Below are positions 7,644-42,101 of a stretch of DNA of 64,000 bases, in pieces. This DNA comes from a virus (taxonomy: Duplodnaviria > Caudoviricetes). The first letter of the stretch is position 1. Each line of letters opens with the position of its first letter. The position numbers were made by a program, and so were the translations under genes. The notes under the pieces are model-generated. The model was not told where the DNA came from and made no database searches. It saw only the letters and a program-made list of their open reading frames with translations. The stretch spans positions 12,301 through 76,300 of IMG/VR virus record IMGVR_UViG_3300025723_000026. The stretch is one strand, 5' to 3'.

Positions 7644-7717
7644 TGGAGCGGGTAGAGAGAATTGAACTCTCGCATCAAGTTTGGTAAACTCGCAGGCTAC
7701 CATTACATCATACCCGC
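7644..7717 (-). tRNA. tRNA-Gly(ACC), rare A34 anticodon
   Basis: Gly-type body GCGGGTA/TACCCGC, U73, CCA; arm CGAGT-TTACCAA-ACTTG. Confidence 0.9.
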
Positions 7718-9223: not shown

Positions 9224-9313
9224 TGGAGGAAGCTGAGGGATTCGAACCCTCGGAGGCGATAAAGCCTCGGTTGTTTAGTAAACAACTCTCTTAAACCGCT
9301 TGAGTAAGCTTCC
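9224..9313 (-). tRNA. tRNA-Ser(ACT), rare A34 anticodon
   Basis: Arm GTTGT-TTACTAA-ACAAC; long Ser-type variable arm; acceptor GGAAGCT/AGCTTCC; CCA. Confidence 0.9.
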
Positions 9314-12382: not shown

Positions 12383-13186
12383 TTATGTATCTATAATAGA
12401 TTCTGAACTCGAATCATCAAGCTTTTTTCTCTGAATATTTGTATAAAGCTGTTTTAATTTACTAATAAATTCTTTAAAATACTTTTGATAGGCTGGATTG
12501 GACTTATTACGATAGAGTGTATTAATGAATCCGTTATAGTCAGATAGAAATTGTGGTACAACAACTTCAGAAATCTTTGTAGAGTTAATGAGGTTTGCTA
12601 TTGACTTGAGAAGAAGCATACGTCTGCTCTTCCAAAAGGTTCTTCCTGAACCTGATTTACTACGACGATAGAGTTCTTTTTGCTGAAGATCAATTTCGTG
12701 CAAGATTGCAGCTATCTGAACAGGGAACTCATTTTGTGCTGTATAATAATCTCTCTTACTACCTACCTTATTGCCAGCTGTTGCTTTGAGATAGGCTTCT
12801 GTTGGTTTTTTATAATTCTTAGCATGAAAAAGCTCATGCACTATCTTATTACGTTTTGTATTATTCGGTAGAGCACTATACTTTTGATAGTTTAATGAGA
12901 TAGTATCTGTTTTTCTATCATAGTCAGCATCACCAAGACTCTCGTCAAAATTGACAGATACATATGCTTTACTTTCTTTACGTTTTACCTCATCATAGTA
13001 CTTTATTGACCCCAAGATCATTGTACCGTCTTGCTGTAATCTCTTTGCATACAATTCCTTAGGATCATTATTTCCTATCACTGTAGGATTAAAGAACTTT
13101 AAGTATGTATTATATACAAGACTAACCTGTCTCTCTTCTTCATCTGAGAGAGTACTCTCTACTATAAAGGATTTAAAGGGAAGCAT
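12383..13186 (-). CDS. Hypothetical protein with HExxH (zincin-like) motif
   Basis: IVHELFH; N-terminus MLPFKSFIVE resembles capsid-targeting leaders. Confidence 0.7.
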   Translation of the reverse strand: MLPFKSFIVESTLSDEEERQVSLVYNTYLKFFNPTVIGNNDPKELYAKRLQQDGTMILGSIKYYDEVKRKESKAYVSVNFDESLGDADYDRKTDTISLNYQKYSALPNNTKRNKIVHELFHAKNYKKPTEAYLKATAGNKVGSKRDYYTAQNEFPVQIAAILHEIDLQQKELYRRSKSGSGRTFWKSRRMLLLKSIANLINSTKISEVVVPQFLSDYNGFINTLYRNKSNPAYQKYFKEFISKLKQLYTNIQRKKLDDSSSESIIDT

Positions 13187-13195
13187 TAAAGATAC

Positions 13196-13378
13196 TTATC
13201 GACCCTGCTTTATCTTTCTATCTAACGCCTTTTGCTTGCGCTTACGCTTTTGACCTGATGACTCAAAATATCGGTGATTACGTACTTCCTCTAAAACACT
13301 ATCAGAATCTATTTTAGTTTTAAGACGTCTTAAAACACGATCAATATCTTCACCTTTTCTTACTTCTACCGAATGCAT
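13196..13378 (-). CDS. rpsU: Ribosomal protein bS21 homolog
   Basis: VEVRKGEDIDRVLRRLK.K.....LEEVR..RYFE....KRKRK pattern; 60 aa, basic C-terminus. Confidence 0.85.
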   Translation of the reverse strand: MHSVEVRKGEDIDRVLRRLKTKIDSDSVLEEVRNHRYFESSGQKRKRKQKALDRKIKQGR

Positions 13379-13381
13379 ATT

Positions 13382-13744
13382 CTATTGCTGATGTAAAGCT
13401 AAATCAACAAGCCTATCATACTGATCCTCTTCTATCTCATGATGCTTACCCTCGTCCTTGTATACTACAAAGTAATCATAATAATAACGATCACCATCAC
13501 TATACCTATCATCCCATACAACATAGACTCTACCGTTGTTAATACCTACATGTGCTCTAGCTTGATTTCCAATTGAAACATATTGCTCAACCCAACTTTT
13601 ATCTTGTAACTGTTTTTGTAATTCTTTATGTTCAGCTTCTGGTTCATGTACTTTAGCTGAAGAAGGCATTTGTTCACGGAAATCTGAATCTGATTCCTGA
13701 TAAATTCTTGTGTACGCTTCGGCAATAAGCTGTTCGTCGTTCAT
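13382..13744 (-). CDS. Hypothetical late protein
   Basis: ATAAATA upstream; MNDEQLIAEAY leader. Confidence 0.7.
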   Translation of the reverse strand: MNDEQLIAEAYTRIYQESDSDFREQMPSSAKVHEPEAEHKELQKQLQDKSWVEQYVSIGNQARAHVGINNGRVYVVWDDRYSDGDRYYYDYFVVYKDEGKHHEIEEDQYDRLVDLALHQQ

Positions 13745-14532: not shown

Positions 14533-14576
14533 TTCTATATACTATAGGAATTATATTTTTTTACAAGCTTAAAAAG

Positions 14577-14603
14577 TGCTCCAGGTGCTCAACCAGAAAC
14601 TAA
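14577..14603. repeat. Inverted repeat arm in hsp20 3'UTR (partner 15136-15160)
   Basis: tgctc-c-aggtgctcaacc-a-gaaactaa matches the reverse complement of 15136-15160. Confidence 0.9.
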
Positions 14604-14611
14604 ATTAAACT

Positions 14612-15097
14612 TTATTTAACCTCGATACTAATATTGTGTACCTCCGGTTTCACTGTCGGGACCTTAACTCGTAGTAACCCGTCGGTGTATGTTGATGAGA
14701 TGTTTTTAACATCCGTATTGTCATTAAGAGAGAAGGACAATTGTCCCTTTCTACGGCTAATGCCTTTACGATGGAAGACTACTGTCTCATCATATTCAAC
14801 TTCTTCCTTATCAACAGCGATCACGAGCTTACCCTCCTTGACCGATACGTTGATATTATCCTTTCCTACACCAGCCAATGCTACTTCGATGTAGTAGGTG
14901 ATTGGGTTGCCGTCTGGATCGGTTTCTGATACAATGTTATAAGGATAGACTGCATTTGGAATATCAAATGCTTTATCGAAGTCCTTAATGACATCGGTTA
15001 GCCACTTATCGTTAAACAGCGCAGGGAGGTGACTGAATCCCGTCGCTGTAGCAGGAATGATCCTGCCAATCGTGTATGGTGTTATTGTGTTTGTCAT
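14612..15097 (-). CDS. Small heat-shock protein (Hsp20/alpha-crystallin family)
   Basis: YPYNI...Y.IEVALAG....NI.V.V..G.L.I...HRKGISRR....FSL......A/STYTDGLL.V.VP; AGGAG RBS. Confidence 0.95.
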   Translation of the reverse strand: MTNTITPYTIGRIIPATATGFSHLPALFNDKWLTDVIKDFDKAFDIPNAVYPYNIVSETDPDGNPITYYIEVALAGVGKDNINVSVKEGKLVIAVDKEEVEYDETVVFHRKGISRRKGQLSFSLNDNTDVKNISSTYTDGLLRVKVPTVKPEVHNISIEVK

Positions 15098-15135
15098 ATG
15101 TTTTCTCCTTTGTTAAGCGAGTTAATATGTTCACT

Positions 15136-15160
15136 CTAGTCTCGGTTGAGCACCTGAGCA
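15136..15160. repeat. Inverted repeat arm in hsp20 5'UTR (partner 14577-14603)
   Basis: ctagtctcggttgagcacctgagca, 4 nt downstream of a TATAAATA promoter on the minus strand. Confidence 0.9.
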
Positions 15161-15164
15161 ATAT

Positions 15165-15172
15165 TATTTATA
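15165..15172 (-). promoter_or_regulatory. T4-type late promoter
   Basis: Exact TATAAATA; related TAAATA motifs precede many late genes. Confidence 0.75.
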
Positions 15173-15237
15173 TAGGCTATTCTAAAAAATAGCAATTATT
15201 TTTTATACCGATAATAAAAGTAAAGTGTTATAAGATA

Positions 15238-33432: not shown

Positions 33433-35217
33433 ATGCCTAATAATATTAATGCATTACCATCTTCTGGTCCTATCTCTCTACAAGATATAGCGAACGCGTT
33501 CTATTTATATAAATCATATTCAGATGGTGGTTCTGTTGATCTTTCCGTATATTATGGAGACAATATACGGAAATATAATTCACCATCTGGGCCTAATATA
33601 CCGTTCCTATCAACGTATTCGCCGTCTGCTCCACCAATTGCTACATCATTTACAAAAAAACTTGATGTTGACCCTTTTCATGGTAAGCGTTTTACGTTTC
33701 CTATTAATCTTATTGTCAATACCCCGATTAAAAACTATAACGTTTATGATCAAGCAGCACTTTCAGCAAAAAATGCATATGGGTTTAATTTAAACACACC
33801 TGGTATTCCGTTTAATATTACTGTAATAAACAATAGTACTATATCATCATCTGCAACAACAGGACCTGGTATAACACCAGGATCATATTCCGTGTCAACA
33901 CCAGGTACTACATATACTTGGACAATACCAGCTAATACAACATCAGTAAATATACTCGTTGCCGGCGCCGGTGGTGGTGGCGGCGGTGGTGGCGGTGTCA
34001 GTGGCGCTGTTGGAGGCGGTGGTGGTGGCGGTGGTGGTGTTATAGTTACAAACAATATTCCTGTTATACCGGGTATGCCTGTAACTATAACTGTAGGTAA
34101 GGGGGGTCAAGCAGGTACATTTACTACTCAAGGAGATTCAGGTGGTACCTCAACACTTACAATAGGTACTAGTAGTTTTAGTGCGTTAGGCGGTGGAGGT
34201 GGTTACCCAGCTCCTAATGGACCAGGTGGTAACTACGGAGGACCAGGTGGTGCAACAGGTGGAACCGGTACTACTAAAGGAGGATCAGGTGGACTCTCAC
34301 TTACATCTCCAGCTGGCACTGGTGGTGCTGGTGGAGGTGGTAATGGAAGCGGTGGTTGGACAGCAGATGGTATACCAGGTAATAATGGCATTATCACTAT
34401 TACTTGGGCCAATGTAAATAGTAACACAACTAACACCCTAGGTACAGCTGCAATGGTTATTGGTACAAGTTCTGATGGATCAAAAGTATTCAATCAAAAT
34501 ACAATTGCATGTTTTATTAACGGTAATAGTGGCACCATAGTAGGTGCTGCAGATACGTCTCCAGTAGTGACTTGTACTGGAGCAGGTAGTTTTTACGTGA
34601 ATCAAGGTGAAGCAAACATATGTTATAAACTATTAGGGGGAGGAGGCCAGGGCGGACATGGAGGCGCTGCTGATCACCATGTTGGTCAAGGTCAACATGG
34701 TGGAACGGGCGGTTGTATAACCGGTTCTGTATCCGTTAAACAGGGCGATCTTGTATGTTACGGGGGGGGAAGCGGTGGTACAGGTGGTAGTTATGTTGGT
34801 ATCGATGGAAGTCCGGCTGTGCTCTGTATCAACGGTAATGTAGCAGCTTGTGCCCCTGGAGGGGGAGGTGGCGGAGGTTACGGTACTGATGGTCAAACGT
34901 ATTACGCAGGTAGTAATGGGGTTTCATATAGTGGTGGAGGATGTGGAGGCAGCTATGGTGGTTATACTGATGGAAATTGGAGTGGTCACTGCGGGGGCAG
35001 CGGTTACCCTGGTAGTGCTACAGTGTGTTATCAACCAAACCTACCAGGAGGACCAGCACTCTACCTTACGAAAAAAACAAGTATTACAAACAACGGTAAT
35101 ATAATTGGTGGATCGAGTTCAATCGGTACAGTAGGTGCTGGTAATGCTATTATCGGTTGTTCCTGTATAGATGGTACAATACAGGGTAGTGGTAAGATTT
35201 ACGGCCATCAGATATAG
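33433..35217 (+). CDS. Glycine-rich structural / tail-associated protein
   Basis: Poly-Gly V.GAGGGGG domains; N-terminal LPSSGPISL.DI motif. Confidence 0.75.
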   Translation: MPNNINALPSSGPISLQDIANAFYLYKSYSDGGSVDLSVYYGDNIRKYNSPSGPNIPFLSTYSPSAPPIATSFTKKLDVDPFHGKRFTFPINLIVNTPIKNYNVYDQAALSAKNAYGFNLNTPGIPFNITVINNSTISSSATTGPGITPGSYSVSTPGTTYTWTIPANTTSVNILVAGAGGGGGGGGGVSGAVGGGGGGGGGVIVTNNIPVIPGMPVTITVGKGGQAGTFTTQGDSGGTSTLTIGTSSFSALGGGGGYPAPNGPGGNYGGPGGATGGTGTTKGGSGGLSLTSPAGTGGAGGGGNGSGGWTADGIPGNNGIITITWANVNSNTTNTLGTAAMVIGTSSDGSKVFNQNTIACFINGNSGTIVGAADTSPVVTCTGAGSFYVNQGEANICYKLLGGGGQGGHGGAADHHVGQGQHGGTGGCITGSVSVKQGDLVCYGGGSGGTGGSYVGIDGSPAVLCINGNVAACAPGGGGGGGYGTDGQTYYAGSNGVSYSGGGCGGSYGGYTDGNWSGHCGGSGYPGSATVCYQPNLPGGPALYLTKKTSITNNGNIIGGSSSIGTVGAGNAIIGCSCIDGTIQGSGKIYGHQI

Positions 35218-35255
35218 ATCTCGCACAGGTCAATATATAAATACTAATAAGATAT

Positions 35256-37208
35256 ATGTCACTTAATTTATTAGATAATGCTTATGTTATTGGTACACTT
35301 AGCGCTTCGTCGGATGTAGCTACATCTGGAAGATTTCTCTCCGGTGGTGTCGATATAAGCTCGATTATAAGCGCTATTAACATCAGTCCGTATTCTTATA
35401 AATTAAGTACATCATCTATACAGACATTATATAACAGTAATAATGCTTTAGGTCAATTTTCTGTATCTACAGGTGGTAGCAACAATACAACCACCGGAGC
35501 ATATTCTTTTATTGCTGGTGGGTCTGCTAATTATACAAATTATACTAATACTTTTATCTTAGGAACTGGTTTAAGCGCTTCTAAAGCTAATACAACATTT
35601 GTTAATAATTTAAGCACTCCCGGTACTATAACAGCAGGCATTGTAAGTGCAACCGGAAGTATTTATGCTGGTGGAAACGGTGGTATATTTTATGGTGATG
35701 CTGCAATTCTTGCTCTACGTCCACCAGTTGCTACAGCTCCTAATGGTGCAACATTTTTTCAAGATAATGTAGGTAGTATTACCACAATGTATGTTGACAG
35801 TAATACTAATTACCGTGTCGGTATTGGCACTGTTACACCCAATCAGTTATTAACTGTTGCTGGTAATATTAGTGCGGCTGGTAATTTTTTTACTTCAGCA
35901 GCAACAATTACATCTAACAACTCAGCTACTAATGCTTTTAATACTAGTCTTTTAACTATAGTAGGCGCTGCTAGTGGTTCTGTATTTGAGTCATTGCAAA
36001 ATACTGTAGCAGGGGTTAGTGCAAGTACAGATATATCTATATATAACGATTTAAACAATTATATTGATTTAGGTATTAATAGTTCTAAGTATAATGGTAA
36101 TTTGTATGGACCAGCCTTTAACGTTGTAGGTCCTGGAGACGGTTATCTCTATACAACTAATAACAATTTAGCTCTTGGTACAGCAGGTACTACAGGTAAT
36201 GTCAGTATCTTTACTGGAGGTACATTGTCTGGTTCTAATATAAGAGCTAATTTTACAAATGCAGGGTTAACTGTTAATGGTTATATAAGTGCATCCGGGG
36301 CTGTTTTTTATAATTCAAATTTTAATACAACTAATTTCACAACTAATGGTACTTATATTGTACCAGCTACCGCTTCTTTCGTAAGAATTCAATGTATTGG
36401 TGGTGGTGGAGGCGGTGGAGGCGGATCAGCTAATATAGCAGGGACATCTCACTACGGTGGTGCCGGTGGTGGTGGTGGTGGTTATGTTGATATAACAATA
36501 CCTGCAAGCCAATTAACCTCAACTAATTTAACTATTGGAGTTGGAACTAGTGGAGCTGGTGGAGCTGGCGTTGGACTTACAACTGTAGCTACAGCAGGTA
36601 CTACCGGTTCAGATGGATTATCTAGCTATGTTGCATATACCGCATCTGGTATAAAAATAGCTCTCGCGCCTGGTGGAAGGGGAGGACGCTCTTCGTTAGC
36701 GTCAACAGCTATAATTGGTGGTGGCGGTGGTGGAGGAAATGGAGGAAATGGGGGTTCTGCCGTTCAAGCATCTGAAACCGGTCTTCCTGGAGGAGATTCT
36801 ATGTATGGCGGCGGTGGGGGTGGTGCTGGTGGAGGAACCTTAACTAGTAACAATGGATTAGCTGGAGGAATCGCGTATCCTGGTGGATCTGCTGGTGGTA
36901 ATATAACAAACTCTACAGGAGGTACAGCCGGTACATCTGGTATTGCAGGTGGAGCAGGTGGAGCAGGTTCTGCGTCAGTTGCCTTCTCGACTAATGGTAT
37001 AATTTTTGGTGGTACAGGTGGTGGCGGTGGGGGAGGTAGTTATGGTGGAGCAACTGCTTCTGCAGGTGGCAATGGTGGTGTTGGAGCTTTATATGGTGGT
37101 GGTGGAGGAGGAGGTGGATCCGGTACAGCAGGCACAGCACCACAACAAGCAGCTGGTGGAGCAGGTGGTAATGGAGCAAACGGATACGTAAGAATAACAG
37201 TTTATTAA
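35256..37208 (+). CDS. Glycine-rich tail fibre-like protein
   Basis: FTTNGTYIVP..A.FVRIQCIGGGGGGG...GANGYVRIT glycine-rich domain; shares modules with 30508 and 38313. Confidence 0.75.
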   Translation: MSLNLLDNAYVIGTLSASSDVATSGRFLSGGVDISSIISAINISPYSYKLSTSSIQTLYNSNNALGQFSVSTGGSNNTTTGAYSFIAGGSANYTNYTNTFILGTGLSASKANTTFVNNLSTPGTITAGIVSATGSIYAGGNGGIFYGDAAILALRPPVATAPNGATFFQDNVGSITTMYVDSNTNYRVGIGTVTPNQLLTVAGNISAAGNFFTSAATITSNNSATNAFNTSLLTIVGAASGSVFESLQNTVAGVSASTDISIYNDLNNYIDLGINSSKYNGNLYGPAFNVVGPGDGYLYTTNNNLALGTAGTTGNVSIFTGGTLSGSNIRANFTNAGLTVNGYISASGAVFYNSNFNTTNFTTNGTYIVPATASFVRIQCIGGGGGGGGGSANIAGTSHYGGAGGGGGGYVDITIPASQLTSTNLTIGVGTSGAGGAGVGLTTVATAGTTGSDGLSSYVAYTASGIKIALAPGGRGGRSSLASTAIIGGGGGGGNGGNGGSAVQASETGLPGGDSMYGGGGGGAGGGTLTSNNGLAGGIAYPGGSAGGNITNSTGGTAGTSGIAGGAGGAGSASVAFSTNGIIFGGTGGGGGGGSYGGATASAGGNGGVGALYGGGGGGGGSGTAGTAPQQAAGGAGGNGANGYVRITVY

Positions 37209-37228
37209 AATAACTAATATTAACACTG

Positions 37229-38269
37229 ATGTATACACTGCCTCCAAATACTGTTGCGGGTTCAATTATATTTTCACCACAACATCTTGGTATACCACAA
37301 TATCTTGACGTATCGAGAGATATTGTAATTTCATTTGATTACGCTTGCTATGGGCCAACGGTAAGCGGTAGTGAAGGTTTTTGTGTATTTTTTGGAGATA
37401 CTTTCAATCCAGCTATCTATGGCGGTGGTCCAGGACCAGGATTAGCGTATAGTTCCGTGTATTCTGTTGATCCTAGTCAGGTAACACCTACGGTACCAGG
37501 GTTAAGTGGGTTGACATGCGGTGTATTAGGTGTTGGTTTTGATATAACGGGTAATTTTGGTTGCAGTGCTTATTCAAGCTCTGGTTACATTGACCGAGTT
37601 CAAAACTCTATTGCTTTGCGCTCTTCCTATAATAGCGATTTTAATATTATAACAAGAACTCTCAATTTAAATGATACGTCGTTTACAAAAAATATCAATC
37701 TCTACCAGCAAGTAACAGGGAGTGACGTCCCGGTCTTTAAACGTGTACGTGTTAGATTAACAGACTTCGGGCAGCGTATCGTTGTTGACATGAAATTATT
37801 GGATGATTTGTATTTTACAAACTACTTAGATTATAATTTTGCTAATTATAATAATTCACTTTTATCAAGTACAGTTACTGTATTCGGTATACCATTGAGT
37901 ACAATACCAGTCGCTTTCCCGTCTACAGTTAGATGTGGATTAGGTTTTTCAACAGGACAAGACACAACTACTACCTTTAAAATTAAAAACTTTAATACAA
38001 ATGGTTCATTTACCACAGCATATGCTTCTGGTACATACATGTATGATGTTGATACTACGACATTGAGTGCAATTAGAACATATCTTGATACAGCTGCACC
38101 GTACTTCTATCAAGGGGACAGGTTTAATATATTTAATTATGACCCCGATACCACAAATCCTATTGTTACAGGTGGTAACCCACTTATTGTTGCAGGTACA
38201 AATGGTGTTGACATTGGTGCGCCTTATGTTCCGGGTGATAACTATGTAGTTATTACTGAACATTATTAA
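37229..38269 (+). CDS. L-type (legume-like) lectin domain protein
   Basis: ISFDY...GSEGFCVFF...GGGPG.GLAY...LGVGFD..GNF. Confidence 0.7.
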   Translation: MYTLPPNTVAGSIIFSPQHLGIPQYLDVSRDIVISFDYACYGPTVSGSEGFCVFFGDTFNPAIYGGGPGPGLAYSSVYSVDPSQVTPTVPGLSGLTCGVLGVGFDITGNFGCSAYSSSGYIDRVQNSIALRSSYNSDFNIITRTLNLNDTSFTKNINLYQQVTGSDVPVFKRVRVRLTDFGQRIVVDMKLLDDLYFTNYLDYNFANYNNSLLSSTVTVFGIPLSTIPVAFPSTVRCGLGFSTGQDTTTTFKIKNFNTNGSFTTAYASGTYMYDVDTTTLSAIRTYLDTAAPYFYQGDRFNIFNYDPDTTNPIVTGGNPLIVAGTNGVDIGAPYVPGDNYVVITEHY

Positions 38270-38312
38270 GGAAGCTTAAAAAACAAATACTAAGGAATAA
38301 ATAATCATAGTC

Positions 38313-40973
38313 ATGTCTAATATTGCAGCTACTCTCTCATTAAACGTTCCTGCTATTACTGCCCTCTGCAAGGGTCCGAGAGGGAGCCTGTTCTACGCTG
38401 CATCAGGTCTACCAACAAATCCAAATAATATTTATAGCGGTACTGTCGGTGTGTCCGGTGATTATTATATTGATACATCAACGAGCTTACTATATGGTCC
38501 GTTCGGTGCAACATGGCCGACGACGCCTCTTTTTGCTTTAAATCTACCTGTTAGTGCTTATCCAATTCAAATTATTCCAGGTACAACCTCACTTGTTATA
38601 CCTACATACGGGTCAAATTCCATATCTCAACCAAGCTCATATGTTACTATTCTCGGTGGCTTTAATAATTCTATAACTGGTCTTAATTCTTTTGTTTTAG
38701 GATCGAATATTACTGCAGCTGTTACCGGCTTTACATTATTAAACAATCTTTCATCAACCGGTACTATTTTTGCTAGCGCGGGTAACAGCAATCAATGGTA
38801 TAATACCTATACCGCTGTTTCACCTAATAGTGGTAACTGGTTTTCAACTTATACATCTGTAGGTAGTAATAGTGGTAACTGGAATAGCACTTATACATCT
38901 GTAGGTAGTAATAGTGGTAACTGGAATAATACCTATTCTTCTGTTTTTGCTAATAGTGGCTGTTGGTCTAGTGCTTATTCTCTAGTTAGTGCCGTTGGGT
39001 ATCAAACATACTATGCAAATAATTCTTGCGCTATTCTACCATTTCAACAAACAAATTTTGCTACAGGAACAGCGAGCAATATTGGCGGTGGTAATTGCAA
39101 TAATGTTTCAGGTTGTTTTTCAGGTATTTTAAATGGTGTTTGTAATACAGCATCCGGTAATTATAGTAATATCACAGGTGGCTTTAGTAGTAATGCCATA
39201 GCTAATTATTCAAATGTGGCTGGTGGTGTAAAAAATACAGCATCTGGTTACGGCTCTACCATAGGTGGTGGTATATACAATATTGCTTGTGGTTATAATG
39301 CTGCTGTAGCGGCTGGTGCATATAATTGTTCAAATTGTTGTAGTACCTTTATCGGCGGTGGTAAGTATAATACAGCGTCCGGTATTCGTTCTGCTGTTGT
39401 AGCAGGTCAAAATAATACAGCTTCCGGTCATTACTCTTATATAGCAGCTGGTTCAGCTAACGACACAAAAGGATATGCTAATACCTTTATCTTAGGTACA
39501 GGATTAAGCGCAACACAAGCTAATTACACATACATCAATAACTTAAGTGTACAAGGTAGTATAAGTGTTAATGGTGGTATTAATACTGGCGGTACCGGTG
39601 GCGCTACATTTAATTCATTGGGTGTTACAAATAATGCTACTGTAGGTGGTACATTGAGTAGTGTTGGTGCTGCTACACTAAATTCGCTAAACGTTACCAA
39701 CAGCGCTACTGTCAGTGGTACATTAAAGGTTGCAGGTGCTTCTACTCTTGCTTCATTAGGTGTAACAAATAATGCTACAGTAGGTGGTACATTAGGTGTA
39801 ACAAGTAATGCTACAGTAGGTGGTACATTAGGTGTAACAAGTAATGCTACAGTAGGTGGTACATTAGGTGTAACAAGTAATGCTACAGTAGGTGGTAGTG
39901 CAACTATTACAGGTAGTGTTGGAATTGGAAGTTCAGGTTCATCAAAATTGAATATATCAAGAAATGTAGGAAACTCATCAACTGCTGATATACATACAAC
40001 AGATGGTACCCAGTGGATTGATATTAATAGTAATCAGTCTGTAGGGTCATGGAATCCTTTAACACAAAATAACGATGCTTCAGTAATTTATTCCGCTGGT
40101 ACAATTGACAATGCAAGCAGTGCTCTTGTCATTGGTCCGCACGCTTCAACAGCAAAAGGTATAAGAATAGATAATAACGGTAACGTTGGTATTGGCATTG
40201 CAGTACCAAATTCTAAGTTAACTGTAGCAGGTACAATTTCTGCGACAACAGCAGTATATGCAAACGGCTATTTGTTAGGTTCTGGAAGTGCCAATTCTCT
40301 CCCACTCTCTGGTGGTACGTTAACAGGCGGTCTTTCAGCTCCTTCTTTAAGTGCAAACAGCATTTATAGTATTGGAAACCAAACAGTAATGACCGATGGT
40401 AGTAATACCACTGGAGCCGGTGCTGGTACTATTTCAATAAATTACCAGAATGGTGCATATATTGGATCAAACGGTTCAGGTGCTTTATATGCTTTAGGTG
40501 TATCAAGATACGGTGCTTATCTTGTAGCAAACGGTACTGCCTTCGGTCCAACAGGAGCTGCTTATTTTACGGCAGCGCCGACAGATACGCTTGTATCAAA
40601 TGGTGTGTATGAATACGAAGCACAGCTTACATTTCAAAAAACCACATCTGCTACTGTTACTACATCTCTTGTTCCGAGTGTGGCGGCAGGTACCAGTATT
40701 GCAGCTGGTATAATGTTGTTTAGCTTTCCATCTTATTCAGGAACGACAACATTATCTCAGACTATAAGTACTAACGCAATTGTAACAAATAATATAACCC
40801 CGTACGTTTTAGGCGTTACACCAACGCTTATAAGCGGTAACTATATGATGAAAATTAAAGGTATGATTGTATCACCAGCTGGTGGAACGACTATACAGTT
40901 AAATATGAGCTGTGGTGCCGGTACGATTACTCCTCTTGCTGGTAGTTATAGAAAACTTACTAGAATTGCTTAA
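38313..40973 (+). CDS. Tail fibre / adhesin-like protein
   Basis: GGxxN repeats, NSGNW helical repeats, NATVGGTLGVTS repeats. Confidence 0.75.
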   Translation: MSNIAATLSLNVPAITALCKGPRGSLFYAASGLPTNPNNIYSGTVGVSGDYYIDTSTSLLYGPFGATWPTTPLFALNLPVSAYPIQIIPGTTSLVIPTYGSNSISQPSSYVTILGGFNNSITGLNSFVLGSNITAAVTGFTLLNNLSSTGTIFASAGNSNQWYNTYTAVSPNSGNWFSTYTSVGSNSGNWNSTYTSVGSNSGNWNNTYSSVFANSGCWSSAYSLVSAVGYQTYYANNSCAILPFQQTNFATGTASNIGGGNCNNVSGCFSGILNGVCNTASGNYSNITGGFSSNAIANYSNVAGGVKNTASGYGSTIGGGIYNIACGYNAAVAAGAYNCSNCCSTFIGGGKYNTASGIRSAVVAGQNNTASGHYSYIAAGSANDTKGYANTFILGTGLSATQANYTYINNLSVQGSISVNGGINTGGTGGATFNSLGVTNNATVGGTLSSVGAATLNSLNVTNSATVSGTLKVAGASTLASLGVTNNATVGGTLGVTSNATVGGTLGVTSNATVGGTLGVTSNATVGGSATITGSVGIGSSGSSKLNISRNVGNSSTADIHTTDGTQWIDINSNQSVGSWNPLTQNNDASVIYSAGTIDNASSALVIGPHASTAKGIRIDNNGNVGIGIAVPNSKLTVAGTISATTAVYANGYLLGSGSANSLPLSGGTLTGGLSAPSLSANSIYSIGNQTVMTDGSNTTGAGAGTISINYQNGAYIGSNGSGALYALGVSRYGAYLVANGTAFGPTGAAYFTAAPTDTLVSNGVYEYEAQLTFQKTTSATVTTSLVPSVAAGTSIAAGIMLFSFPSYSGTTTLSQTISTNAIVTNNITPYVLGVTPTLISGNYMMKIKGMIVSPAGGTTIQLNMSCGAGTITPLAGSYRKLTRIA
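39771..39896 (+). repeat. 36-bp tandem repeat, 3.5 copies (NATVGGTLGVTS)
   Basis: aatgctacagtaggtggtacattaggtgtaacaagt repeated exactly. Confidence 0.92.
39996..40138 (+). repeat. 143-bp dispersed direct repeat, copy 1 (copy 2 at 50586-50728)
   Basis: Two mismatches between copies by manual comparison. Confidence 0.92.
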
Positions 40974-40985
40974 TTATTATTAGCA

Positions 40986-42101
40986 ATGTCTAATTCTCTA
41001 CAAATTTTAAATTCTCTTACATATACAGGGACATCTAACTTTAGTGCAGCTAAAATAATTAGCTCTAAAAACGGGAGCGATTATCTAAATCATGCAATAA
41101 GCTCCTGGAATACTATATCACCGCCTTTAACCAGTCTTGGTCGTTTTACTTGGTCACAAGTTGAATTTGTAAATGATAAATTTTTTACGACAGTTACCGG
41201 TAAACCTTCAGCCGCATGGTCATATGATGGTAAAAATTGGAATTCTATAACAGTTCCAATGACTGCACTTAAAGACGGTATTGCGTACGGTGGTGGCATG
41301 TATACTGGTTTATCTAATTTTCAAGGTGCTACTACTTACATGACACCAGAGTCGTACTATTCCACCGACGGTATAAATTGGTCTATAAACAATTCTTACA
41401 ATACTCCAATAGTTCAGTTAAACTGGGCAACACCTGTATACGGTGTAGTAAATGGTACAGGTATATTTGTATCGGTTGGTGGATCAAATACTTCTGGCTA
41501 TGGTGCGTATTCATACGATGGAATAAATTGGACATTTAATACATCATTTGCCGGTGGTGGTGGTAATAGTATAGCATATGGTATAGTAAACGGTCAGGGT
41601 ATATTTGTAACTGTTCCGCCTCATTCAGCAACGTATTTCATGTATTCAACAGACGGTGTAACTTGGAAACAGGGTAATAGCTTTACTTCATTAGGTAACA
41701 GTTGGAGTTCTGTTACATACGGTTATAATGATGTCGGTACACCGATGTTTGTAGCTGTATCTAATAGTACGACAGGTTACCCAGCGAATGTTTTGTATTC
41801 TTATGATGGTAAAAATTGGGCATACGGTAGTATTCCTGATTATTACTGGATAAATGTAATATATACACCTAACGGACTCTTTATAGCTACAGCGACTACA
41901 TCTACAGCATATGGTATTTATGCTTATTCCTACGATGGTATAACATTTAATACAGCACCGTACATTACAGCTAGCTACATTTTGCCAAAAATAGCTTACG
42001 GTAATGGTGTAGTTGTTGCAGCACCATATTATGGTGCCGCTAACCAATTTGCCTACGCAACACTACCTGTAATTACTAGTACAGGCATATTAACACATTA
42101 A
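40986..42101 (+). CDS. Beta-propeller protein with BNR/Asp-box-like repeats
   Basis: Repeated (Y/W)S.DG.(N/T)W motifs and IAYG. Confidence 0.75.
   Translation: MSNSLQILNSLTYTGTSNFSAAKIISSKNGSDYLNHAISSWNTISPPLTSLGRFTWSQVEFVNDKFFTTVTGKPSAAWSYDGKNWNSITVPMTALKDGIAYGGGMYTGLSNFQGATTYMTPESYYSTDGINWSINNSYNTPIVQLNWATPVYGVVNGTGIFVSVGGSNTSGYGAYSYDGINWTFNTSFAGGGGNSIAYGIVNGQGIFVTVPPHSATYFMYSTDGVTWKQGNSFTSLGNSWSSVTYGYNDVGTPMFVAVSNSTTGYPANVLYSYDGKNWAYGSIPDYYWINVIYTPNGLFIATATTSTAYGIYAYSYDGITFNTAPYITASYILPKIAYGNGVVVAAPYYGAANQFAYATLPVITSTGILTH

Follow-up and report, generated by a model that had tools for sequence, protein, structure and literature searches.

The message of a small heat-shock gene (hsp20) in a large tailed phage, a freshwater myovirus represented by a 76.3-kb viral contig, is closed in folding models by a 31-bp RNA helix that joins the extreme 5' end of the transcript to its whole 3' untranslated region (UTR). 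Judging from its conservation in related phages, this panhandle is a selected feature kept by compensatory changes. As to its function, the comparative evidence favours end protection over other roles. The panhandle may be a clamp that protects both ends and defines the 3' end of the hsp20 message, and we give this explanation about an even chance of being correct.

The analysis was centered on a stretch of 64,000 nucleotides of this contig (the window). The genes of the contig include those for a baseplate wedge, long tail fibres, ribonucleotide reductase and bS21, as well as 21 tRNA genes. No similarity to cultured phages was found at the DNA level; at the protein level the only similarity was to hsp20 of cyanophages, with identity of 35% or less.

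Structure of the hsp20 Transcript

The hsp20 orf (14612–15097, minus strand) encodes a protein of 161 amino acids (Pfam PF00011, E 7e-16; PHROG 432 Hsp20, E 8.6e-21) and is enclosed by the panhandle as its loop. An exact match to the T4-type late-promoter-like element TATAAATA (15165–15172, minus strand) immediately precedes the 5' arm of the helix. The 5' arm itself (32 nt; 15129–15160, minus strand) begins five bases past this octamer and, taken alone, forms the first hairpin of the leader (hairpin I). The start codon is separated from this arm by a ROSE-like hairpin (15105–15121, minus strand), in which an anti-Shine-Dalgarno strand with UCGCU is placed opposite the Shine-Dalgarno (SD) sequence AAGGAG, with a bulged G and a 4-nt loop; it was predicted in every fold. 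The 3' arm (34 nt; 14577–14610, minus strand) begins 2 nt past the stop codon, and a run of five U (14571–14575, minus strand) follows one base (C) beyond it. Both the promoter-like element just before the leader and the C and U5 after the trailer had been pointed out in a first-pass annotation of this DNA, and both are present as described there, the function of the former being putative.

According to RNAduplex, 15129–15160 pairs with 14577–14610 in 31 pairs (28 Watson–Crick and three G:U), with two 1-nt bulges, one mismatch and a free energy of about -45 kcal/mol. The arms include a perfect core repeat of 13 nt (14582–14594 with 15144–15156), and in the 3' arm one G is extrahelical, at a distance of four to five pairs from the outer end of the helix. 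The 25-pair helix between the ends of the hsp20 message that the first-pass annotation had drawn by hand was reproduced by RNAduplex and turned out to be the outer part of the 31-pair helix, which extends further inward. In comparison with 100 shuffles of the 3' flank, the pairing had a z-score of -7.8. The helix was present in both the minimum free energy (MFE) structure and the centroid of the whole 593-nt transcript, and in the full-transcript fold the predicted arms made no contact with the SD or the start codon.

When flank-to-flank pairing was ranked for the 84 putative genes of the window, hsp20 came first (z -7.0, with a median of 0.13), and no other gene among them had a convincing enclosing helix. 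The hsp20 arms were second among 1732 seeded inverted-repeat pairs located up to 4 kb apart. No further copy of the arm motif was found in the window or the contig.

The runner-up in the ranking of genes was bS21 (13196–13378, minus strand), with pairing between 13149–13195 and 13432–13478 (z -3.8, -35.1 kcal/mol). Its arms are located within neighbouring orfs and pair only in patches, and this pairing is therefore probably a result of chance. At 33600–42100 on the plus strand, the search for seeded inverted repeats also revealed several strong pairs 0.3–3.8 kb apart (e.g., 34322 with 37135, -49.8 kcal/mol). All of them are located within long structural orfs of the tail-fibre type and probably represent repeated coding modules.

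Conservation of the Pairing in Related Phages

In total, 128 hsp20 loci were gathered by protein and protein-alignment searches from viral and metagenome contigs, almost all of them from lakes, and 81 loci with distinct flanks were used to count arm complementarity. Complementarity between the 5' and 3' flanks was kept in 58 of the 81 (the window and about 57 distinct relatives). The hsp20 proteins of these panhandle loci are from 100% to about 48% identical to that of the window, and the z-scores of their pairing range from -4.1 to -9.4; in these and the other locus statistics related loci are treated as independent, with shared ancestry uncorrected.

The sequences of the arms diverge widely between clades, and therefore the pairing has been kept through changes on both sides. 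Cognate arms pair with a mean energy of -34.7 kcal/mol, compared with -21.2 kcal/mol for arms taken from different loci. In an alignment of 13 sequences, 87.8% of the cells were paired versus 83.2% after shuffling, and two-sided changes were found in 10 pairs (24 cells), with slid controls at 30–51%; neither the paired fraction nor the number of two-sided changes was reached in any of 500 shuffles. The extrahelical G of the 3' arm recurs across many clades with different arm sequences. On the hsp20 tree, the panhandle trait needs only one or two changes, and a loss was seen in none of the 57 rows. The covarying flanks in orthologous loci, on which the first-pass annotation had staked the helix, were thus found, the 58 distinct loci retaining the pairing with compensatory changes.

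About 20 relatives have the octamer TATAAATA at -75 to -78 relative to the ATG; in more distant ones, ATAAATA variants are found. In most loci the first helix pair containing G or C lies 5–7 nt past the ATAAATA-type element, near the place at which a transcript from a late promoter would be expected to begin. Window-wide, the late-promoter octamer is not enriched (11 copies found, 13.9 expected), so that we infer a promoter function for TATAAATA and, with it, the 5' end of the transcript from the conserved position before hsp20 only. It should be mentioned that a small A+U-rich hairpin with a 6-bp stem and a 6-nt loop is located directly upstream of the octamer (15176–15193, minus strand) and recurs at the equivalent position in several relatives (L004, L009 and L016); it may be the end of the transcript of the upstream PQ-loop gene or a part of the promoter context.

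Selection at the RNA or the DNA Level

Inverted repeats around a gene could also act in DNA, as sites of crossover for a cassette that carries hsp20 and is invertible or mobile, the repeats being kept alike through gene conversion. Crossover sites of the Gin/Hin type are about 30 bp long, and the hsp20 arms are of about this size. Moreover, the upstream neighbours of hsp20 vary between phages, and the wobble mismatches of the panhandle have no strand bias. The latter finding bears on an argument of the first-pass annotation, according to which the substitutions are G:U-compatible on the transcribed strand only, as expected for RNA. This is correct for the window, where three mismatches are sense-compatible and none antisense-compatible, but it does not extend to the family: over the 58 loci, 48 wobble/transition mismatches are compatible with the sense strand and 44 with the antisense strand (p 0.75 in this strand-symmetric count). 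An energy-based strand test of the panhandle was weakly sense-favouring (33/58). Because the wobble mismatches are unbiased, the panhandle helix alone gives no direct proof of the RNA level.

A clear difference between the strands was revealed in the local folding of the 5' arm alone, with a mean z-score of -2.05 for the sense and -0.99 for the antisense strand and a lower sense value in 46 of 57 loci. Since this local hairpin favours the sense strand, RNA-level selection on the transcribed strand holds on the sequence evidence. The local fold of the 3' arm alone was unremarkable (z -0.64), without strand bias. Several other observations lead to the same reading. The limits of the arms match those of the UTRs, with the helix beginning 5–7 nt past the promoter-like element. 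The extrahelical G persists across differing arms, and identical bulges are retained from clade to clade; gene conversion would erase them. The wide divergence of the arms between clades is itself unlike that of a recombinase site. Finally, no inverted form was seen, no recombinase family was found among the 10 neighbouring orfs, and in 22 loci the flanking tRNA genes, 65 in total, are all on the hsp20 strand. An invertible DNA segment of the Gin/Hin type was rejected on the latter grounds. A DNA switch is thus an unlikely explanation of the hsp20 inverted repeats, and by our own estimate an extremely unlikely one.

Hairpin I and the ROSE-like Hairpin

The 5' arm alone folds into hairpin I with an energy of -9.4 kcal/mol, and this hairpin is predicted in all clades. 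At 37°C the full-length transcript has a probability of 0.95 for the panhandle and 0.00 for hairpin I; in the transcript without the 3' arm, hairpin I has a probability of 0.88–0.99 up to 37°C (these and the other folding values are nearest-neighbour predictions). No covariation of hairpin I was detected among 13 close relatives, in which 72.4% of the cells were paired versus 71.6% after shuffling.

The ROSE-like hairpin is invariant in all 13 aligned relatives. All 58 panhandle loci and seven of 10 outgroup loci contain the motif U(U/C)GCU opposite the SD, as do the cultured cyanophages Syn9, S-CRM01 and S-SCSM1. Such an arrangement is characteristic of the ROSE-like thermometers found before small heat-shock genes (PMC3669281). 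The ROSE covariance models of Rfam gave no match among the hits up to E 10. The first-pass annotation knew of no named motif for this structure, and this agrees with the Rfam search, in which all hits were sub-threshold. The best of them was freshwater-2 (15095–15175, minus strand; 22.9 bits at a threshold of 49.9, E 0.54), the others being preQ1-II and BTnc049, and 20 divergent loci gave no hit at the gathering score. The sub-threshold match to freshwater-2, a motif from lake metagenomes, is carried mainly by the stretch from the SD to the AUG; the motif may precede genes with a similar ribosome-binding context.

At 5, 37 and 50°C the SD hairpin has a predicted probability of 0.96, 0.86 and 0.53, respectively, and the ROSE-like hairpin at 15105–15121 is likely to be a temperature sensor in this folding model. 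The predicted probability of the panhandle is at least 0.93 up to 50°C and still 0.64 at 80°C. This does not agree with the heat-melting switch that the first-pass annotation had listed among possible roles of the helix, and we rejected the panhandle as a heat sensor on its predicted stability. Pairing of the anti-SD with the SD at 37°C has a probability of 0.86 with the 3' arm and 0.80 without it, and a panhandle that gates the SD was likewise rejected in silico. Since the helix is predicted to be stable to 50°C and the occupancy of the SD does not depend on the 3' arm, the panhandle would be neither a heat sensor nor a gate of the ribosome-binding site.

The same predictions bear on a translational lock or thermometer helper similar to that of hok, in which pairing of the ends would silence the message or adjust the ROSE-like hairpin, an effect lifted by trimming or melting of the 3' arm. 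The topology is indeed hok-like, with paired 5' and 3' ends and a transient local 5' hairpin, and within the ingroup the panhandle and the ROSE motif go together, with both in all 58 panhandle loci and neither in the other 13. However, the predicted occupancy of the SD hairpin is nearly equal with and without the 3' arm, the arms touch neither the SD nor the start codon, and the helix is predicted to be stable far above physiological temperatures. In addition, outgroup phages and cyanophages have the ROSE motif without a panhandle. We therefore consider a lock of this kind very unlikely; sequestration of the SD by the fold-back, as in hok, was not found in silico.

The 3' End of the Message in Sister Lineages

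A local terminator-like hairpin (-12 kcal/mol or better, within 75 nt of the stop codon) was found in none of the 58 panhandle loci. The minus strand of the window contains no intrinsic terminator at this place: the best local hairpin has only -5.4 kcal/mol, and the U5 run adjoins the long-range helix instead. A local intrinsic terminator was accordingly rejected for the window. The situation is different in 13 ingroup loci (46–53% identity) that have no panhandle, of which 10 contain, past the stop codon, a strong terminator hairpin (-18 to -23 kcal/mol) followed by a U run. Among the panhandle-less loci inspected, most have a local 5'-terminal hairpin formed by the motif homologous to the 5' arm. 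Syn9, S-CRM01 and S-SCSM1 have the 5' hairpin and the ROSE motif and no panhandle, with a terminator in S-CRM01 and S-SCSM1. Thus, one long-range helix appears to occupy the place of two ordinary end hairpins of related phages, in a trade-off that reflects only one or two evolutionary events.

The panhandle-less ingroup lineages (L038, L045, L049, L065, L110, L112, L114, L116, L117, and L118) also differ in their leaders. They have no SD-like GGAG before the start codon, and the ROSE motif is present in none of the 13 loci. This suggests hosts with SD-independent initiation and a leader that was rebuilt together with the 3' end.

The exchange of helix for terminator raises the question of whether a distant 5' segment could act in transcription termination. 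The panhandle would then be a long-range intrinsic terminator, whose stem would have the 5' end of the transcript as its first strand, and the polymerase would be released by the 3' arm together with the U run; if so, read-through into the downstream tRNA or gene would depend on a free 5' arm. The absence of local terminators from all 58 panhandle loci and the strong ones at the equivalent place in 10 of 13 panhandle-less loci are in line with this possibility, and so is the C and U5 after the 3' arm of the window. A U run is also found right beyond the arm in L017, L064, L119 and others. Such runs, however, occur in a minority of relatives only, and most of them have a TATAAT-like element at this position; the helix stops just short of one or the other, a U run or the next promoter. 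Furthermore, the partner of the nascent 3' arm is 550 nt away and held in hairpin I, and would have to find it within the pause, and the helix reaches inward to the stop codon, far past what a terminator stem needs. We know of no natural example of a long-range terminator that uses the transcript's own 5' end. Altogether, we regard termination by the panhandle as improbable.

Location Among tRNA Genes

As noted above, the tRNA genes around hsp20 are co-oriented with it, and the distance from the hsp20 stop codon to the start of a tRNA is below 150 nt in 14 loci. This location may explain the need for end protection: processing of the surrounding tRNAs removes flanking RNA, and protected ends would matter for a gene in such a position. 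It should be mentioned that two tRNA genes of the window, tRNA-Ser with the anticodon ACT (9224–9313, minus strand) and tRNA-Gly with the anticodon ACC (7644–7717, minus strand), have A at position 34. Apart from tRNA-Arg(ACG), an A34 is unusual among bacterial tRNAs. In many relatives, including L003–L015, the position directly past the 3' arm of hsp20 is occupied by a conserved Ser(ACT) gene.

The same surroundings are compatible with a processing stem for RNase III. The host enzyme would cut the hsp20 mRNA out of transcripts that read through the tRNA region, or would trigger its decay, as in icaR. RNase III needs a duplex of roughly 20 bp, which is exceeded by the 31 bp of the panhandle with its bulges. 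Besides the embedding of hsp20 among tRNA genes of the same strand, most relatives have no U run past the 3' arm, so that read-through into the tRNAs is likely, and the extrahelical G is conserved across clades. On the other hand, the promoter-like element directly precedes the 5' arm, and the main transcript would therefore need no processing at its 5' end. Neither the contig nor a complete 218-kb relative was found to contain an RNase III gene, and the enzyme would therefore have to come from the host, and the sister lineages have two ordinary end hairpins instead of another double-stranded cleavage site. For these reasons, excision or decay through RNase III seems to us rather unlikely, with a better prospect than the long-range terminator.

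A Model of End Protection

The clamp that we propose could work as follows. While hsp20 is being transcribed, the 5' arm would be held in the local hairpin I. Once the 3' arm has been made, the far more stable panhandle would displace this hairpin. The closed message would leave no single-stranded 5' end for 5'-end-dependent decay (of the RppH or RNase E type), and the helix would block 3' exonucleases at the other end. In this way, a single long-range helix may do the job for which the sister lineages and cyanophages use a 5'-terminal hairpin and a terminator hairpin, and temperature control would be left to the separate ROSE-like hairpin within the loop.

The conservation and covariation of the helix, its start near the presumed 5' end, the sense bias of hairpin I, the predicted folds and the tRNA surroundings all speak for the clamp. 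For an effect of the pairing on stability or on access of ribonucleases, the mutual exclusion of the panhandle and local terminator hairpins is an indirect indication. Several findings do not fit it equally well. A 30-bp duplex is also a substrate for RNase III and could destabilise the message instead, the wobble mismatches are unbiased by strand (48 vs. 44), and hairpin I, which the model includes, has no covariation support among the 13 close relatives.

If the model is correct, the natural swap between the panhandle and the pair of a 5' hairpin and a terminator hairpin would offer a clean system for studying end sequestration and the life of mRNA in infected cells. The phage would have packaged a thermometer-controlled chaperone gene as a self-contained message in a tRNA cluster.

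Comparison with Known Systems

To our knowledge, end-to-end pairing of mRNA has been documented for a handful of bacterial messages only (hok, hbs, icaR, and RNAIII), each in one or a few species. The hsp20 panhandle adds to them a case with deep comparative support, with dozens of arm sequences and no losses in the 57 rows of the tree. We found no report in the literature of a panhandle in a phage mRNA or of a UTR structure of cyanophage hsp20. By its base pairing between the 5' and 3' UTRs, the phage hsp20 message belongs with the end-pairing mRNAs of the hbs and hok type.

In hbs of Bacillus subtilis, the 3' UTR pairs with the message's own 5' UTR and protects the mRNA from ribonuclease (Braun, Durand and Condon, 2017, PMC5737220; PMC7821165). 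Both systems pair 5' and 3' UTRs within one bacterial-type mRNA, and in hbs the effect is on stability and not on blocking of the SD. The extent of the pairing differs: 14 nt of hbs shield an internal RNase Y site, whereas the phage helix has about 31 bp and includes the ends of the message. Unlike that of hbs, it also replaces a terminator hairpin, and its protective effect is what we propose from comparison.

The hok mRNA of the hok/Sok system of plasmid R1 has a tac/fbi fold-back, in which the extreme 5' end pairs with the 3' end (PMC9841398). The closed full-length form is shared with the phage message, and so is a transient local 5' hairpin that precedes the synthesis of the 3' end. In hok, however, the fold-back enforces sequestration of the SD, which is relieved by 3' trimming, after which the antisense RNA acts. 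The phage message differs in that, by prediction, its SD is occupied to nearly the same extent with and without the 3' arm, and in that it encodes a chaperone and not a toxin.

In the case of icaR of Staphylococcus aureus, pairing of the 3' UTR with the SD prevents translation and leads to decay of the message (PMC3868564; PMC7821165). Here too, a long-range duplex between the UTRs of one mRNA is a potential substrate for RNase III. The difference is that the 3' arm of the phage message pairs at least 30 nt upstream of the SD and not with the SD itself.

The 16S and 23S rRNAs are flanked by RNase III processing stems that are removed in maturation. These stems are similar to the panhandle in that a long helix surrounds a whole gene product, in a unit that also contains tRNAs. 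They enclose stable RNAs, whereas the phage helix surrounds an orf that is translated, and its start is at the presumed 5' end of the transcript.

The leader within the loop, as distinct from the panhandle, can be compared with that of ibpA of Pseudomonas, in which short ROSE-like thermometers consist of two hairpins (PMC3669281). Although the phage leader has no match to the ROSE models of Rfam, it is similar in its length of about 63 nt, in its order of elements (hairpin I, then U(U/C)GCU imperfectly paired with the SD) and in its position before a small heat-shock gene. What distinguishes the phage clade from ibpA is the additional complementarity of the 3' UTR to both strands of hairpin I.
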